Shown: in pieces, positions 3,348-45,339 of the stretch
Layout of the letters: every line of letters starts with the position of its first letter
How positions within the stretch are numbered: the first letter of the stretch is position 1
Assembly: GCF_036507355.1 (NCBI RefSeq)
Contig: NZ_AP027877.1
Length of the DNA: 64,000 nucleotides
Source of the DNA: Escherichia coli
GTDB lineage: Bacteria; Pseudomonadota; Gammaproteobacteria; Enterobacterales; Enterobacteriaceae
Strand: one strand, 5' to 3'
The notes under the pieces: generated by a model
What the model saw: the letters and a program-made list of their open reading frames with translations, nothing else
Database searches by the model: none
What the model was told of the DNA's origin: nothing
Made by a program: the position numbers and the translations under genes

Positions 3348-4542
<1,195 letters not shown>

Positions 4543-4659
4543 CAAGAGAACGCAACAGCGCACTTGCTTTGCCACAGTTGAATTTTGTGCCGTAACGATG
4601 TGCAAGCATGTAAGCATAAGGAGTCAAGGTATAGCGTGTTACTTAGTTACTCGGATTAA

Positions 4660-5137
4660 CAATCCCAACGTACAGAGCGGCGGATTTACAGAGTCAGCGC
4701 AGTCCCTGCTCCGGCAGTCAGTGGCAGGCGGCGTACTGAAGCAAACCATTATCGATACCGGCATCGGCGATACCATCGGCATGCTGATGTCACACGGCAA
4801 TATTTCTCCCTACATCATGGCGTGGTTGATAACCGTGCTGATCCGTCTGGCAACGGGTCAGGGCGTGGTCTCAGCCATGACGGCGGCGGGGATTATTAGC
4901 GCAGCAATCCTCGACCCGGCAACCGGTCAACTGGTGGGCGTCGACCCGGCGTTGCTGGTGCTGGCAACAGCGGCTGGCTCCAACACGCTGACCCATATCA
5001 ACGATGCTTCGTTCTGGCTGTTCAAAGGCTACTTTGATCTGTCGGTGAAGGATACGCTGAAAACCTGGGGTCTGCTGGAGCTGGTAAACTCCGTGGTTGG
5101 CCTGATAATCGTGTTGATCATCAGCATGATTGCATAA
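4660..5137 (+). pseudogene. 3' fragment of a GntP-family permease gene, 5' part replaced by IS5
   Basis: Only the C-terminal ~150 aa remain (..[71 protein letters not shown]..); the track ORF 4271..5137 reads through the IS5 terminus. Confidence 0.5.
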
Positions 5138-5186: not shown

Positions 5187-5882
5187 TCAACAATCCTCAA
5201 TAATCAGATATACCGCCTTCACCGGACCATGCACCCCAACCACCTTGATAAGCTCAATATCCGCCGTCGAGCTGGGTCCACTGATGATATTAATGCACGA
5301 TGGCATACGCTCACCGGCCTGTGCTTTCTGATGCAGTTTTTCTGCCAGCTGCGCCACGCGCGGCAGGATGGTGCTTTTACGCAGCACGAAAATAGAGGAC
5401 TCCGGCAACAGGCTCAGGGAGCGCCCGCGCTCCGGTGCGGAAAACAGCACCACGCCGCCGGACTCGGTCAGGCCATATTCGGCATACACCACGCCGACTT
5501 TCGCCTGCTCGGCCTGGGTAATATTTTCGCTACCACGCGCCGGATCCCAGACCACGGCGTTGCATTCCTGCTGCAAGCGTTCGGTGATGCCCAGCTCCAC
5601 CAGCCGGCTGTCGCCGCTCAGCACCACCGGCTGCTGACCCAATTCTTCGCACAGGCGCAGTGCCGCGTCTGCGGCCTGGTCCTCGCTGGTCAGTTCGCAG
5701 CGGGCCAGCATCACTTCGCTGGCAAACTGGATAAACGCAGAGCAGCGCTGCTCGGGGCTAAGCTCGGTCAGGCGCTCGTTGGCATAGTTGTTAACCGGTG
5801 CGGCATCCGCTTGCGGTTCGAAGCGCAGCGGGCGACCCAGCGCCTGGGCGATGGTGTTTAAAAACGCGGTACGGTTATCCAT
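5187..5882 (-). CDS. lutC: LutC/YkgG-family lactate utilisation protein C (231 aa)
   Basis: ORF 5187..6029 with internal start MDNRTAFLNTIAQALGRP; 8-nt overlap with upstream lutB end. Confidence 0.75.
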   Translation of the reverse strand: MDNRTAFLNTIAQALGRPLRFEPQADAAPVNNYANERLTELSPEQRCSAFIQFASEVMLARCELTSEDQAADAALRLCEELGQQPVVLSGDSRLVELGITERLQQECNAVVWDPARGSENITQAEQAKVGVVYAEYGLTESGGVVLFSAPERGRSLSLLPESSIFVLRKSTILPRVAQLAEKLHQKAQAGERMPSCINIISGPSSTADIELIKVVGVHGPVKAVYLIIEDC

Positions 5883-7302
5883 TCTTTTTCTCCTGCGCCT
5901 GATGTTTCTTAAACCAGCTGCGGAAGCTCTCGCCGTCAGCATCAGGCAGATCGCGCGCCTCCATCCAGTCACCAATCGCGCCAACCTTGAGCGGGGTTTT
6001 GCCGCCATTGATAAACCAGCTCGCCGCATGCGCGCCCGCCATCATCCCGACTTTCCACAGCCCCGGATGGCTATTGGCATAGGCGAACATCTTGATCGCC
6101 CGTCGCTCGGCTTTCGGCGTAATGCCCTCCTCGGCCATCACCCGGCGATGACGCAGGATCAGTTTTGACAACGGAATACGCACCGGGCAGACGCTGTCAC
6201 AAGCCGTGCACAAAGAACAGGCGTACGGCAGGTCTTTAAAATCTTTATAGCCGCCGAGCAGCGGAGAAATCACCGCGCCGATAGGGCCGGGATAGATAGA
6301 GCCATAGCCGTGCCCGCCGATGTGGCGGTACGCCGGACAGGTGTTCATACAGGCTCCGCAGCGGATGCAGCGCAGCACATCGCGAAACTCTGAGCCCAGC
6401 ACCTGCGAGCGACCGTTATCGACAATCACCAGATGGAACTCTTCCGGTCCGTCAACGTTGTCCGCCTCACGCGGGCCGGTCAGCCAGGTGTTGTAGCCCG
6501 TCAGACGTGCGCCCACGGCGCTGCGCGCCAGCATGGTAATCAGCACATCCACCTCGGCAAAGGTCGGCGCGATACGCTCCATGCCCATCACCGCAATGTG
6601 CGTTTTCGGTAGCGTGGTGCACATGCGCGCGTTGCCTTCGTTGGTCACCAGACACACCGAGCCGGTTTCCGCCACGGCAAAGTTACAGCCAGTAATACCG
6701 ATTTCGGCACTGAGGAAATCCTCGCGGATCTTCTGACGAATGAACAAGGTCATAGCTTCCGGGGTTTCCGGGCCGTCGTACCCCAGACGTTCGTTCAGCA
6801 CGCGGCGGATCTGGTAGCGATCTTTATGAATCGCCGGAACCACGACGTGCGAAGGCGGATCCTGATCCAACTGCAGGATATATTCCCCGAGATCGGTTTC
6901 GATCACCTGGATTCCGGCATCCTGCAACACATGGTTGACGCCGATTTCTTCGGTCACCATCGACTTGGACTTCACCACCTTCTGCGCATTTTTACTCTGC
7001 GCGACCTGCAAAATGTAGCGAGTGGCATCTTCTTTGGTTTTGGCGAAATAGACGTGTCCGCCGTTTTCCGTCACTTTCTCGGAGAGTTGGTACAGGTAAG
7101 CGTCGAGGTTGCTCAGAACGTGATCGCGGATCTGGCTGGCACGATCGCGCCATTCTTCCCAGTGGCCTAACTCATCGACCATTTTTTGCCGATTCGCGCC
7201 GATACGCTCCTGCGCATTAGCTACGGCTTTGCGCATAATCGGATCTTCTATCTGCTGACGAATACGCAGTTTAAATTCTACATCGCTGGTTTTTATCGAC
7301 AT
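5875..7302 (-). CDS. lutB: LutB/YkgF-family iron-sulfur lactate utilisation protein (475 aa)
   Basis: Two ferredoxin-type Cys clusters (CIRCGACMNTCP, CSLCTACDSVCP); length and order match LutB/YkgF. Confidence 0.85.
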   Translation of the reverse strand: MSIKTSDVEFKLRIRQQIEDPIMRKAVANAQERIGANRQKMVDELGHWEEWRDRASQIRDHVLSNLDAYLYQLSEKVTENGGHVYFAKTKEDATRYILQVAQSKNAQKVVKSKSMVTEEIGVNHVLQDAGIQVIETDLGEYILQLDQDPPSHVVVPAIHKDRYQIRRVLNERLGYDGPETPEAMTLFIRQKIREDFLSAEIGITGCNFAVAETGSVCLVTNEGNARMCTTLPKTHIAVMGMERIAPTFAEVDVLITMLARSAVGARLTGYNTWLTGPREADNVDGPEEFHLVIVDNGRSQVLGSEFRDVLRCIRCGACMNTCPAYRHIGGHGYGSIYPGPIGAVISPLLGGYKDFKDLPYACSLCTACDSVCPVRIPLSKLILRHRRVMAEEGITPKAERRAIKMFAYANSHPGLWKVGMMAGAHAASWFINGGKTPLKVGAIGDWMEARDLPDADGESFRSWFKKHQAQEKKNG

Positions 7303-7312
7303 CTCTTTCCCC

Positions 7313-8032
7313 TCAGCGGCTCATCAGCACTTCAGCAATATGCATCACTTTGACCGGCTGGCCTTCCCGTTGCAGTCGACCGCCAATGTTCAGCAGGCAG
7401 CTAACGTCTGCGCCAATCAAAAATTCCGGCTTTGCGTCCATCAGATGTAATACTTTCTCTTTCACCATCTCACCGGATATCTCGGCCATCTTGACCGAGA
7501 ACGTCCCGCCAAAGCCGCAACAGGTATCCTGATCGGCAAACGTCAACAGCTCCAGTCCGCGCACGTTTTTCAGCAGCGTAAGCGGCTCTTCCTTCACTCC
7601 CAGTTTGCGGGTCAGGCTACAGGAAGGATGATACACAGCGCGGCCCTGCAGGCTGGCACCAACGTCCACCACACCCAGTTTGTTGACGATAAAGGAGGTG
7701 AGATCCTGCATACGCGCGGAAACTTTCTCAGCACGCAGCGCCCATTCCGGTTCATCGGCCAGATACGTCGGGTAGCTTTTAACCGCGTAGGTGCAGGAGC
7801 CCGCCGGGGAGATAATCGGATCGTCGTTGTCTTCCAGCGCGGCGATCAGGTTTTTCATCCCGGGAATCGCCTCTTTGATGTAACCGCTGTTGATGGCTGG
7901 CTGACCGCAACACCCTTGCTTCTCGGGGAAATTAACGCGACAACCCAGTTTTTCCAGCAGCAATACGGAGTCTCGTGCCATCCGTGATTTCAGTGCGTCA
8001 CCAATACAGGTGACAAAGAAATTTACATTCAC
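7313..8032 (-). CDS. lutA: LutA/YkgE-family Cys-rich Fe-S oxidoreductase subunit (239 aa)
   Basis: CCG-type Cys-rich domain (FVTCIGD.., CCGQPA.., CCGFGG); first gene of the lutABC-like trio. Confidence 0.85.
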   Translation of the reverse strand: MNVNFFVTCIGDALKSRMARDSVLLLEKLGCRVNFPEKQGCCGQPAINSGYIKEAIPGMKNLIAALEDNDDPIISPAGSCTYAVKSYPTYLADEPEWALRAEKVSARMQDLTSFIVNKLGVVDVGASLQGRAVYHPSCSLTRKLGVKEEPLTLLKNVRGLELLTFADQDTCCGFGGTFSVKMAEISGEMVKEKVLHLMDAKPEFLIGADVSCLLNIGGRLQREGQPVKVMHIAEVLMSR

Positions 8033-8069
8033 AATAACTACTCCATTGCTTCATTTCTGTTTATTGCGC

Positions 8070-8087
8070 TTGATATCGCGATATCAA
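8070..8087. promoter_or_regulatory. Perfect 18-bp palindrome TTGATATCGCGATATCAA between the dld-like stop and lutA start
   Basis: Read directly from sequence; self-complementary; no T-run follows on either strand, so more likely an operator than a terminator. Confidence 0.3.
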
Positions 8088-8106
8088 ACAAATGTTCATT
8101 CGTATT

Positions 8107-9804
8107 TCATGCCCAGTTTTTATGTTTGCTGGTTTTACCAATACCTGGGTTCATAGTGTTGGTCGGATCATTTTCCTGATAAAAACGTGCCAAATTTTCC
8201 GGCGCTTTATACAGATGGCCGACATTGTGTTCCGCCGGATATTGCGCTCCGCGTTGGCGCAGTAATTCCAGCATCTGTTCTTTTAACGCGTGGGCATCTA
8301 CGCCTTTTTTAACGATATAATCCTGATGGAATACATGGCACATAAAATGGCCGTAATAGAGTTTATGCACCAACTGACTGTCAATTTCCGTCGGTAAATG
8401 CTCATACCATTCGGTATCATTGCGGCGTAATGGAATATCCAGCGCGAGAATATCCTCAACCTCGTCAGAATGAACAGCCTGATAACGAATGGCAGCACCC
8501 GCGGCGGCAAAACGATGCAGAAACGCCTTACTGCCCTCTTCCGCGGTACAGGTAAAGAACGCGCCCTCGGCCGATTTAAAATAGTCCGTTAACCATGCCT
8601 GGGCTTCGGCCACACCCTCACCGGACATTTTCAACATCAGATGGTGTTCATAGTTATCGCGCCAGGTCTTCATCCGCGCCGGGAGATGGCTCGGGAACAG
8701 ATGGCTAAAAGCCTGCATCGCGCGGTCGGTAAAGTGCGGGCGAAAGATCTTCACCTTCTCAAGTATGGCCTCGGTACGCCCCTTCAGGTTGAAGAAGAAC
8801 GGCATTTTGTCCGTGCCAAGTTTGTCGATCATCAGGAAGGTATCTTTGCTGTATTTCTCTGCAATATCATAGATATCGCGGTGCATATACTCCCCAGCAA
8901 CCGGCAGGTTTGTAAAATTCGCCAGGATGTGGCGGCGAATCTCAGTCAGGACATCAGTCTGATTGGTACCGATATAAAAGACCTGCTGGTTCTTCTCGGC
9001 TTCAAAGGTATCCAGACGTACGGCAAACACCGCTAACTTGCCCGCACAGCCAGAGGATTCAAACAGGCGATCCGGGTCAGCGTTGTAACGTGCTGGCGTG
9101 TCGGCATTGATGTCCCGCACGCGGCTAACATAGTCGTGATCGTGCGCGTGACGCCCGTCATGGTTGACGAGCACGGCTTCAATCGCATTGTTATCCAGCC
9201 GGGCAAGGATTTGCTCTGGCGTCTGACCTAGCTCAATGCCGAGGTGATTGACCAGCTGCAAGCGTCCCTGTTCATCAATACGGGCAAACAGCGACATCTC
9301 GGTATAAGCCGGGCCACGCTGGACCAGAGAACCGCCGGAGTTATTACAGATACCGCCGATAACCGACGCGCCGATGCACGAAGAGCCAATCACCGAATGC
9401 GGCTCACGGCCAAACGGCTTCAGCGCCTTTTCCAGCGAATACAGCGTGGTGCCCGGATAAGCCAGCACCTGCTTACCCTCATCTAGCACATGCAGACTGT
9501 CCAGCCGCAGCGTGCTGATAATGACGATCTCGCGGTCGTAATCATTACCATTGGGCGTCGAACCCTCAGTCAGGCCAGTGTTCGACGCCTGCATCAGGAT
9601 TATTTTATCGGCCTCAACGCAGGCGCTAAGGACTTTCCAGAGTTCAAGCAAAGAGCCGGGGATAACCACCGCCAGAGCATCACCCTGACCCGAGCGAAAA
9701 CCCTTACGGTAACGCGCAGTTTTTGACGGTTCGGTGAGGATATGAGCAGGGCCAACCAATTGGGTAAGAGTTGTCAAAAAGGTCTTATTATCAGTATGTT
9801 TCAT
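8107..9804 (-). CDS. dld: FAD-dependent D-lactate dehydrogenase, Dld paralogue (~565 aa)
   Basis: Collinear full-length similarity to E. coli Dld (..ARYRKGFRSGQGDALAVV.PGSLLELW.., ..RHILANF.NLPVAGEYMHRDIYDIAEKY..); start chosen at MKHTDNKTFL inside ORF 8107..9852; many substitutions versus K-12 Dld as recalled. Confidence 0.8.
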   Translation of the reverse strand: MKHTDNKTFLTTLTQLVGPAHILTEPSKTARYRKGFRSGQGDALAVVIPGSLLELWKVLSACVEADKIILMQASNTGLTEGSTPNGNDYDREIVIISTLRLDSLHVLDEGKQVLAYPGTTLYSLEKALKPFGREPHSVIGSSCIGASVIGGICNNSGGSLVQRGPAYTEMSLFARIDEQGRLQLVNHLGIELGQTPEQILARLDNNAIEAVLVNHDGRHAHDHDYVSRVRDINADTPARYNADPDRLFESSGCAGKLAVFAVRLDTFEAEKNQQVFYIGTNQTDVLTEIRRHILANFTNLPVAGEYMHRDIYDIAEKYSKDTFLMIDKLGTDKMPFFFNLKGRTEAILEKVKIFRPHFTDRAMQAFSHLFPSHLPARMKTWRDNYEHHLMLKMSGEGVAEAQAWLTDYFKSAEGAFFTCTAEEGSKAFLHRFAAAGAAIRYQAVHSDEVEDILALDIPLRRNDTEWYEHLPTEIDSQLVHKLYYGHFMCHVFHQDYIVKKGVDAHALKEQMLELLRQRGAQYPAEHNVGHLYKAPENLARFYQENDPTNTMNPGIGKTSKHKNWA

Positions 9805-10239
9805 GGAGGGCGGCTCTCCGCTCCTTATATCAGGGCCAGTGAAAATGGCCATAAGTTCATTTGTACGACAAAACAGAATATTCCCTCAATCAATATCCAC
9901 ATGCAATACCCCATTTTATTTCTTTCGGCACCGCTCACATTTTTTAATGAAATTACCACTACCACATAATTCATACTCCGTTCTTTTACTGGATGCCAAA
10001 ACGCTTATTTCATTTATTGCAAAGACCATTTCATACCTATTAATGATTAACTCTAATGGGTATTATTATATTTAGTGGTTATTCATATTTAATAAAAAAA
10101 TAACATTATTTATACAATTATTAACCTTTGTAACTTTATTTCACTGAAGCGATTCAGTTTGCATTTTTTATTTTATTATTAAGGTAGCCTCCTTCCCCCT
10201 AAATATAGTTAAGTCTAAAAAAGTAAATCGAGAATTGTA

Positions 10240-11793
10240 ATGCACGAATATTTAATGTTTGCCCTGGCACTCTCTCCTTTGCTGCTGATGGTATTTTTAA
10301 TACTGAAATTAAAAATGCCCATCCATTATTCCGTACTGATCTCTTTGGTATTCACCGCTGCACTATCGGCAATATTCTGGGAAATGCCCACACAGAATCT
10401 GAAAGCCGCGATAGGCTATGGTGCACTGAAGGGACTATGGCCGATCGTAATTGTTATCCTCGGCGCTATCTTCAGTTATAACGTCATGCAGGCGACCAAA
10501 GCGCTGGATATTCTGCGCGATATTCTCGCCAGCATTAGCGAAGATAAGCGTATTCAGGTGCTGCTGATTTCATGGTGTTTTGGTGGATTTCTTGAAGCCG
10601 CTGCGGGCTATGGCACGGCGGTCGCTATTCCGATCGGTATTCTCATTGCGCTGGGATTCAACCCGTTGAAGGCGGCGATTGCTTCCCTCGTAGCAAATAC
10701 CGTTCCGACCGCATTTGGCGCGGTTGGGATCCCAGTTTCTATTCTGGCAGAGCAGGTTAATCTGCCGGTTTATACCTTAGGCGGAACCATTATTTTGCAG
10801 CTCGCGCTGTTTAATATCCTGCTGCCGTTTGTGATTGTCTGCATTATTGGCGGTGGCCTGAAAGCCATTCGCGGCGTATTTCTGATCACGTTGATTTGCG
10901 GCATTTCCACGCTGGTTCCGCAATATTTTGTCGCCATCCATCTTGGCGCGGAATTACCCGCCTTTGCCGGTAGCCTGGTCAGCCTGTTTGCCGTGGCGAT
11001 GGTCAGTCGCCTGCGCAAAGGGAAAACCGATCCCGAGTGGCGCATTGAGGTCAGCCATACCCGCGAAACCACGCCGCGCTCGGCAAAAGTGTTGTTCCGG
11101 GTTGGCTCTATTTATCTGTTTATTTTTGTGTTTATCCTGCTGTGTTCGCCGCTGTTCCCGACAATAAAAAGCGTGGCATCCCAACTGGCTTCGGTGCTGC
11201 ATTTCACGTTGGCTGACGGCAAAACGATGGCGCTGAAAGTTGAATGGGCGACCACACCGGGGATGCTGATCATCTTTGCGACCATTATCGGCGGTTTTAT
11301 TCAGGGAGCGTCCGCACGTGGGATGCTGGAAGTATTTATCAAAACGATTTTCCAGCTTAAAAACTCTATCGTCGCAATTATGGCGATCGTCGCGCTGGCC
11401 ACGGTGATGGATCTCAGCGGGATTATCTCCACGCTGGCCCAGTCGATTGTCGATCTGACCGGCAGCTCGTACGTCTTCCTCGCCCCGGTGATTGGCGCGC
11501 TGGGCACGTTCGTGACCGGCAGCGATACCAACTCGAACATTCTGTTCGGCAAGCTGCAAACCATTGCCGCCAGCAAGTTACATATCGATCCTAACTGGCT
11601 GGCGGCGGCCAATACCTCTGGCGCTACGGGGGGGAAAATGATTTCGCCGCAAAGCATCGCCATCGCAGTTTCTGCCACCAAAATGGACGGTCAGGCCAAC
11701 CAGATTATGTCTGGCACCATGAAATACTGCTGCGCCTACATTGTGATCCTCGGCCTGAAAGTCGGTCTGTTTTATTACTGGTTTATGGCGTAA
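10240..11793 (+). CDS. L-lactate permease, LctP family (517 aa)
   Basis: Polytopic membrane protein with the LctP-family N-terminus; divergent from the dld-like operon across a 435-bp AT-rich region. Confidence 0.8.
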   Translation: MHEYLMFALALSPLLLMVFLILKLKMPIHYSVLISLVFTAALSAIFWEMPTQNLKAAIGYGALKGLWPIVIVILGAIFSYNVMQATKALDILRDILASISEDKRIQVLLISWCFGGFLEAAAGYGTAVAIPIGILIALGFNPLKAAIASLVANTVPTAFGAVGIPVSILAEQVNLPVYTLGGTIILQLALFNILLPFVIVCIIGGGLKAIRGVFLITLICGISTLVPQYFVAIHLGAELPAFAGSLVSLFAVAMVSRLRKGKTDPEWRIEVSHTRETTPRSAKVLFRVGSIYLFIFVFILLCSPLFPTIKSVASQLASVLHFTLADGKTMALKVEWATTPGMLIIFATIIGGFIQGASARGMLEVFIKTIFQLKNSIVAIMAIVALATVMDLSGIISTLAQSIVDLTGSSYVFLAPVIGALGTFVTGSDTNSNILFGKLQTIAASKLHIDPNWLAAANTSGATGGKMISPQSIAIAVSATKMDGQANQIMSGTMKYCCAYIVILGLKVGLFYYWFMA

Positions 11794-44652: not shown

Positions 44653-45339
44653 CTAATATTTGATTAACAAAAAAAACGTATTTTTATCAAATTCATAATT
44701 ATCACATCCCTCTCCACTAAATGATATAGCTCTAAAATCATATTCATTACATGAGTATCTTTTCATCAAAATAGAGAGGAATGTTTCATTAATTGATTTT
44801 AATACAAACCATTTTCTCCTAACAAGTTTGTAGTTTAATGTTTTTATATGATAATTATTTAAACTGGGGAGAAATGAATGCATATCATTCAATTTTACAT
44901 CAAAATATATTTTTTTACCTGCCGTAATTTCCACCCATCGGCTCAAATTCAAATCAAGCTCAAAGGGACAAAAGCCTCCTAGATAGTCTAAGCTAATATT
45001 TCCTGATGTAATCAAGAATTCGTCATCACACAAAGCATCAAATACATCTCCATTTCCTTTTTGGAAGTTCTTTGGATAATATATTCTGGGGAGAAAATAC
45101 GATTTAGTACTACTGTTATAAAAAGTTATAGTGGCTAAAATATTTTCAGCATGTGGCTTAACCACCAATTTAACAACAACATCATTTGTTAATTCATTAC
45201 TTATATTTTCCTCTGGCGCTAAATTATGGCTAAGATAAATAATTGGTTTCCCATTGTCACTTCTTCGTTCAAAACCGAATCTGTATTTTTTTACAAAAAG
45301 ATTCTCATTATCTATTGCAATTGCAATAGATAATGGCAA
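44653..45339 (-). CDS. AT-rich hypothetical protein, candidate immunity partner of the upstream HExxH protein; start uncertain
   Basis: ORF 44653..45339 begins at TTG; an ATG with signal-like peptide MKRLAFYNLNYVVLMVFFFVFC lies upstream in another frame across T-homopolymer runs. Confidence 0.35.
   Translation of the reverse strand: MPLSIAIAIDNENLFVKKYRFGFERRSDNGKPIIYLSHNLAPEENISNELTNDVVVKLVVKPHAENILATITFYNSSTKSYFLPRIYYPKNFQKGNGDVFDALCDDEFLITSGNISLDYLGGFCPFELDLNLSRWVEITAGKKIYFDVKLNDMHSFLPSLNNYHIKTLNYKLVRRKWFVLKSINETFLSILMKRYSCNEYDFRAISFSGEGCDNYEFDKNTFFLLIKY

Follow-up and report, generated by a model that had tools for sequence, protein, structure and literature searches.

The perfect palindrome TTGATATCGCGATATCAA at positions 8070-8087 of the window, i.e., of the whole 64,000-nt stretch of Escherichia coli DNA under study, is a real and evolutionarily constrained element, which is specific to the form of the lctP / dld-lutABC module derived from Citrobacter freundii. 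Its best explanation, tentative at a probability of about 0.4, is a small stem-loop in the polycistronic mRNA, situated in the spacer between dld and lutA, or in the leader of lutA, that would act post-transcriptionally. A chromosomal regulator, most likely YieP in addition to FNR, is probably borrowed by the module at the promoter of dld and not at the palindrome, as judged from sequence similarity.

The palindrome is composed of two exact arms of 9 nt and lies within a gap of 74 nt (8033-8106) between the TGA stop codon of dld (8109-8107) and the GTG start codon of lutA (8032), both genes being encoded on the minus strand. Sequence and position of the palindrome as well as the length of the gap are exactly those given in the original prediction. 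A T-run following the palindrome is absent from either strand, and no site resembling a terminator or a sigma-70 promoter was revealed by a consensus scan of 8033-8106. When the window was simulated with a first-order Markov model, 0.31 perfect palindromes with arms of at least 9 nt were expected per 64 kb, and 28% of the simulations contained at least one; the window has three of them. The palindrome alone is thus not statistically remarkable; it is raised above chance by the conservation of its arms compared to the variable flanking remnant of dld (see below). No second copy with up to three mismatches occurs in the 64-kb window. A repeat finder, for which arms of 9 bp are too short, listed no inverted repeat. 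Another perfect 18-bp palindrome, ATTCTGCCATGGCAGAAT, is located at 4367-4384 within an IS5 element (transposase ORF at 3494-4474), and a perfect 30-bp palindrome, CATTATCTATTGCAATTGCAATAGATAATG, which is far above chance length, is found at 45306-45335 in an AT-rich spacer of a region encoding a type VI secretion VgrG and an M35 peptidase.

The gene dld (8107-9804, minus strand) encodes an FAD-dependent membrane D-lactate dehydrogenase with the Pfam domains Lact-deh-memb and FAD_binding_4. It is followed on the same strand by lutA/ykgE (7313-8032; GTG start, 239 aa, a CCG cysteine-rich domain protein), lutB/ykgF (5875-7302, according to the annotation of an identical island in strain G3/10), and lutC/ykgG (5187-5882; the annotated gene comprises 696 nt, the mechanically predicted ORF reaches 6029). 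Divergently oriented, a gene for an L-lactate permease of the lctP family is located at 10240-11793 on the plus strand. The ORF of dld extends up to an ATG at 9852 (581 aa). This ORF appears to be 16 codons too long, the true start being probably the ATG at 9804 (565 aa), which is preceded by GGAGAG, because pKOXM1A (ATAG) and C. gillenii (ATC) do not have the ATG further upstream.

The lctP / dld-lutABC block constitutes an accessory island with IS elements on both sides, present in 99 of 5,426 complete E. coli genomes. The module also occurs on approximately 137 plasmids, mostly large IncF/IncH plasmids and mostly from Klebsiella, with further representatives in Raoultella, Salmonella, and E. 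coli. Between LutA of the module and the chromosomal LutA of the Citrobacter freundii complex the identity amounts to 95-99%, and the module originates from Citrobacter. There, the native neighbourhood comprises genes for a beta-eliminating lyase, a Trp/Tyr permease, and a kinase as well as lctP, lutABC, and gntP. A regulator gene adjoining the module was found neither on the plasmids nor in the island nor in the native Citrobacter neighbourhood, so the earlier statement that the module encodes no regulator holds for the module itself and extends to its native locus. The gntP permease gene, in native Citrobacter located downstream of lutC, is truncated in the window by an element of the IS5/ISKpn26 family (3494-5137). 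The island adjoins mmuP/mmuM here and has another site and a different arrangement in G3/10.

In most chromosomes of the C. freundii complex dld is internally deleted, leaving the promoter, few bases of the 5' end, and about 75 nt of the 3' end before lutA. Considering six Citrobacter species that share this deletion, 0 of 18 columns are variable in the arms of the palindrome compared to 17 of 52 in the dld remnant and spacer (Fisher p=0.0036). In the palindrome centre, CGCG, two of four columns are variable. The A-rich lutA leader GCAATAAACAGAAATGAAGCAATGGAGTAGTTATT between palindrome and GTG (8033-8067, minus strand; Shine-Dalgarno GGAG at 8041-8044) varies in 3 of 35 columns and can be aligned with the leaders of Escherichia, C. 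gillenii, Tenebrionibacter, and Intestinirhabdus. Due to the fact that the palindrome is kept and constrained where dld is deleted, it goes with lutA and not with dld.

On the plasmids and in most Citrobacter chromosomes the perfect palindrome comprises 22 bp, GCTTGATATCGCGATATCAAGC, which represents the ancestral form; the window carries a C to T exchange at the second base of this 22-mer, giving GTTTGAT at its beginning. The exact palindrome is kept in Citrobacter sp. wls619, C. braakii, and C. portucalensis. Variants of the centre (numbered according to the 18-mer) are C8 to A in two species, C8 to A combined with G11 to A in C. werkmanii, and G11 to C in one metagenome contig. The gene dld has been lost repeatedly between promoter and lutA, as a whole gene in Escherichia and by internal deletion in the C. 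freundii complex, and the deletion in C. youngae ATCC 29220 is larger than in the C. freundii complex.

It is doubtful that the palindrome has no function of its own, in which case a chance palindrome would owe its conservation to a constrained region upstream of lutA or to the young age of the lineages. Such an origin would agree with the number of palindromes expected by chance, with the unexceptional folding energy described below, and with several tolerated disruptions. On plasmid NZ_CP061751.1 (L005) an IS1 is inserted at the centre of the palindrome, in three species (L010, L015, L069) a secondary deletion rewrites its first base and thus the left arm, and in all of these cases lutABC is intact; C. 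youngae ATCC 29220 carries a degraded copy, TTGGTAAAAGATATCAA. Against a lack of function stands the contrast between the invariant arms and the adjacent non-coding remnant in the same genomes. Furthermore, substitutions are compatible with wobble pairing or lie outside of the arms, and unrelated sequences form a hairpin at this position in other lineages. The plasmid NZ_CP061751.1, in which homology begins at the palindrome centre, was also considered as an indication of a recombination junction or transposon end, but is merely an IS1 insertion.

Besides the island and plasmid form, an intact dld directly before lutA was found only in C. gillenii, Citrobacter sp. Res13, and an E. coli IncHI1B plasmid. 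The C. gillenii-type spacer comprises 130 nt and has at the homologous place an unrelated GC-rich hairpin, CCGGGCGGCGATGTGCCGCCGG, followed by TTTT. At the same position, ykgE of E. coli K-12 is preceded by the hairpin CCCCCGGTGGGGGG, and in the cryptic Escherichia clades CCCCGGAAGGGG is part of a longer stem. In each lineage the hairpin ends right before a conserved A-rich leader, (GC)AATAAACAGAAATGAAGCAATGGAG-N8-GTG. Judged from these comparisons, the sequence of the palindrome is lineage-specific, and the recurring feature is a stem-loop at that position. The original prediction had been made dependent on conservation of the motif in homologous dld-lutA spacers; this was confirmed for the C. 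freundii-complex lineage but not for the nearest intact spacers or Escherichia ykgE, where unrelated GC hairpins take its place. Because hairpins have been swapped between lineages with the position being kept, a sequence-specific protein site is disfavoured. In Vibrionaceae and Pasteurellaceae, lctP-lutA spacers contain long perfect inverted repeats with arms of 12-15 bp, e.g., TGTGTTCAGCGTGAAATATCACGCTGAACACA, approximately at -55 to -85 from lutA (L046, L047, L049, L051-L058, L070, L073).

In the sense RNA a stem-loop of 22 nt is predicted at 8068-8089 (minus strand), GUUUGAUAU-CGCG-AUAUCAAGC, with nine pairs including one U.G. For the window form the fold energy amounts to -6.6 kcal/mol (z=-3.2 when this 22-mer is taken alone), compared to -9.0 kcal/mol for the perfect 22-mer. 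A context of 101 nt is no better folded than shuffled sequences (z=+0.28), 20% of the shuffles of a 45-nt segment fold better than the native segment (p=0.20), and analogous segments across the lineages gave p values from 0.015 to 0.66. Four independent point substitutions in the arms, all of them transitions, keep the pairing in the sense RNA as G.U (GC to GU, CG to UG, AU to GU, and UA to UG). The same four changes produce A.C mismatches in the antisense RNA, and each of them breaks the symmetry of the DNA. All other substitutions (C8A, G11A, G11C) fall into the 4-nt loop. Altogether, 96.6% of the cells are paired, four pairs being altered on one side and one pair being broken by a deletion variant; a double compensatory change was observed for 0 of 9 pairs. 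Under simple neutral models four wobble-compatible changes have a probability of approximately 0.01-0.06. A search with the Rfam 15 covariance models of both strands of 7800-10300 gave no match at E<=1.

Taken together, the constraint on the arms and a variation that is confined to the loop or compatible with wobble pairing lean towards RNA. The weak energy of the hairpin and the lack of double compensatory changes keep this inclination slight, and conserved arms with a variable centre would equally suit an operator of a dimeric protein.

RNAalifold across the lineages, whose hairpin sequences are not alignable, returned only a helix of five pairs, GCAAU/AUUGU, around the Shine-Dalgarno sequence. 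This conserved helix brackets the Shine-Dalgarno sequence of lutA (8033-8060, minus strand), with a UA to UG change in Escherichia, and may modulate translation initiation.

Assuming that the RNA is the functional form, a single promoter upstream of dld, equipped with a YieP-type box, would transcribe dld-lutABC as one operon. Read-through transcription is the simplest reading because the gap contains neither a terminator-like nor a promoter-like site. The palindrome would be transcribed as a hairpin with nine pairs and a loop of 4 nt that ends approximately 35 nt before the start codon of lutA, and would represent a spacer hairpin or, where dld is lost, a hairpin in the 5' leader of lutA. Most likely it would serve as a structural insulator or stability element which, irrespective of the upstream sequence, prevents base pairing of the A-rich leader of lutA on which ribosomes are loaded. 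Additionally or instead, it may act as a barrier or as a 5' cap after processing. As an outcome, the output of LutABC would be independent of dld.

We regard it as unlikely that the palindrome is instead the operator of some dimeric factor which binds to TTGATAT-N4-ATATCAA within the transcribed region and uncouples lutABC from dld by local repression or as a roadblock. Its symmetry as DNA, perfect over 18 bp here and over 22 bp in the ancestral form, and the classic operator pattern of invariant arms with a variable centre in six species are in agreement with such a site, as are the weakness of the RNA hairpin and the absence of a regulator gene from the module. Except for the outer bases discussed below, though, known operators are not matched. 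Operators of the FadR subfamily of GntR regulators, including LldR, PdhR, GlcC, and DgoR, share TKGT and ACMA boxes in a palindromic arrangement, with GT and AC being 3 nt apart, or 2 nt in some groups (PMC4494728). Compared to the TKGT-N3-ACMA consensus, TTGATATCGCGATATCAA contains no GT...AC pair arranged in this way, and it shows no similarity to the YieP motif derived from ChIP-exo, atTTGTaTGAcaAAT. The comparison with LldR, PdhR, and other GntR-family operators, which had been proposed as a check, was thus negative for both motifs.

The consensus of FNR is TTGAT-N4-ATCAA. The outer bases of the palindrome are perfect FNR half-sites, TTGAT and ATCAA, but are spaced by 8 bp instead of 4 bp. 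Although the half-sites are alike and the homologous operon of K-12, YkgEFG of which works in anaerobic nitrate respiration, depends on FNR, the palindrome lies at a great distance from the promoter, and in K-12 it is the upstream promoter region to which the FNR effect has been mapped. To our knowledge, operators of the NarL 7-2-7, IHF, ModE, LacI-family (central CG), and TetR types do not fit the palindrome either.

A regulator with several targets might have left further copies of its site, for which a search before other lactate genes had been suggested. In 876 kb of related loci, palindrome matches were restricted to the homologous position, and the viral contigs of IMG/VR gave 0 matches. 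A BLAST search of PLSDB (72,556 plasmids) with a query of 34 nt returned the module itself and partial chance matches in Sulfitobacter, Ralstonia, Sphingobium, and Bacillus. Including the window, the palindrome was therefore found in no other context, and this adds to the unrelated GC hairpins of the sister lineages, to the distance of 1.75 kb from the promoter, and to the arm substitutions, which break the symmetry uncompensated, as evidence against an operator. The original reading as a regulator binding site is disfavoured in view of the missing consensus match, the swap in sister lineages, the lack of a second copy, and the presence of a YieP-type box upstream of dld.

Three kinds of transcription signals were compared to the palindrome. 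A sigma-54 promoter was rejected, as the adjoining upstream sequence, CTGAACCTTTGCT, does not contain the GG that is typical of a -24 element. In case of a sigma-70 promoter, for which -35 and -10 hexamers at a spacing of 16-18 bp with A2 and T6 in the -10 hexamer were demanded, TTGATA is a good -35 hexamer, but it is not followed by a -10 hexamer having A2 and T6, and nothing was detected by the scan of the gap. It is very unlikely that this TTGATA is the -35 hexamer of an internal promoter which expresses lutABC independently of dld, with a -10 hexamer in CAATAAAC. TTGATA equals TTGACA at five of six positions and is followed at a distance of 16 nt by AATAAA, conservation extends over all 57 nt from palindrome to GTG, and in the metagenome contig L109 a deletion joins the -35 region of the upstream promoter directly onto the palindrome, with lutA intact. 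On the other hand, besides the deficient -10 candidates, the K-12 leader is without a usable -35 hexamer at this place, and yet the YieP site, situated about 120 nt further upstream, exerts an approximately 10-fold control on ykgEFG.

The third signal, an intrinsic terminator, likewise is a hairpin soon after a stop codon, and the palindrome starts 20 nt past the stop codon of dld. It differs, however, by its AU-rich stem with two to three G-C pairs and by the missing U-run on either strand; with the negative scan, this corroborates the original argument against a terminator. A descent of the palindrome from an intrinsic terminator or attenuator of dld, which in its decayed form would lower read-through into lutABC, is considered highly improbable. 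The C. gillenii-type spacer, in which TTTT follows the GC-rich hairpin at the corresponding place, would be in line with such a history, but even this form remains under the threshold of the scan, and the palindrome is retained and constrained where dld is gone. A literature search for a terminator or attenuator of ykgE revealed nothing relevant.

Returning to the promoter that is presumed to drive the transcript with the stem-loop, a GntR box of the YieP type, TTTTGTCGTACAAAT, is located upstream of dld at 9859-9873 (minus strand). It agrees in 13 of 15 bases with the K-12 ykgE site ATTTGTCATACAAAT (L002, 3478-3492), which is the reverse complement of the YieP motif, and TTGTCGTACAA at 9861-9871 fits TKGT-N3-ACMA exactly. 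The version of pKOXM1A is CTTTGTCATACAAAT. A core, TTGTCATACAA, is shared by the regions preceding lutA in Escherichia, Proteus, and all loci of the C. freundii complex. Just upstream of the box, putative hexamers of a core promoter, TTGCAT-N17-GAATAT, are situated at 9878-9906 (minus strand), and this promoter block (candidate TTGCAT-N17-GAWTAT) is common to the window, K-12, C. braakii, C. gillenii, and C. youngae. The stretch preceding dld and the one preceding ykgE in K-12 are homologous; in effect, the promoter of K-12 is the same, with dld being absent.

In K-12, YieP is a repressor of ykgEFG, and deletion of yieP raises ykgEFG expression approximately 10-fold (PMC7642389). By Reg-Seq, a repressor site of YieP was independently located directly behind the position of RNA polymerase at the ykgE promoter, and FNR was identified as an activator (PMC7567609). 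By similarity to these sites, the box at 9859-9873 is probably the real operator of the operon and would be bound by YieP. Since YieP is chromosomally encoded, the module can do without its own regulator gene. The idea that the module recruits a chromosomal regulator can thus be retained in part: it very probably depends on one, as none is encoded in the module, but the site of recruitment is most likely the YieP-type box upstream of dld rather than the palindrome.

The lctP / dld-lutABC module is widely mobilised metabolic cargo, and lactate respiration adds to the fitness of enterobacteria when the gut is inflamed (PMC9701030). To understand the spread of the module, its control in a new host needs to be known. 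The promoter region upstream of dld suggests that the module plugs into the YieP control, and probably also the FNR control, of its host. It is tempting, if rather improbable, to assign more to the 22-bp palindrome, namely that as an operator of a further enterobacterial transcription factor, or as a hairpin for an RNA-binding regulator, it switches LutABC (L-lactate oxidation) apart from Dld (D-lactate oxidation). If so, a stereo-specific control of lactate oxidation would move with the module onto plasmids and islands of Klebsiella and E. coli, because the palindrome travels with the module. As it stands, we regard the palindrome as a small and constrained element of the leader, presumably with a modest effect; the main gain is the corrected location of the probable operator, and no new question is raised.

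Compared to known systems, the palindrome resembles the operators of LldR and PdhR in being an AT-rich palindrome at lactate or pyruvate genes, but it is without GT and AC boxes and its half-site spacing is incompatible. The YieP operator of K-12 ykgEFG belongs to the same operon family (lutABC corresponds to ykgEFG) and has its 13/15 copy in the homologous promoter block of the window; the palindrome is a different element, 1.75 kb downstream and after dld. Intercistronic or 5'-leader stem-loops set differential mRNA stability or translation, e.g., the REP element of malE-malF and the 5' hairpin of ompA. In comparison to these two, the hairpin of the palindrome is much shorter and weaker (nine AU-rich pairs, -6.6 to -9 kcal/mol) and is not a member of a repeated family. 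Like them, it is a predicted transcribed hairpin without a terminator tail, whose position is kept while its sequence changes.
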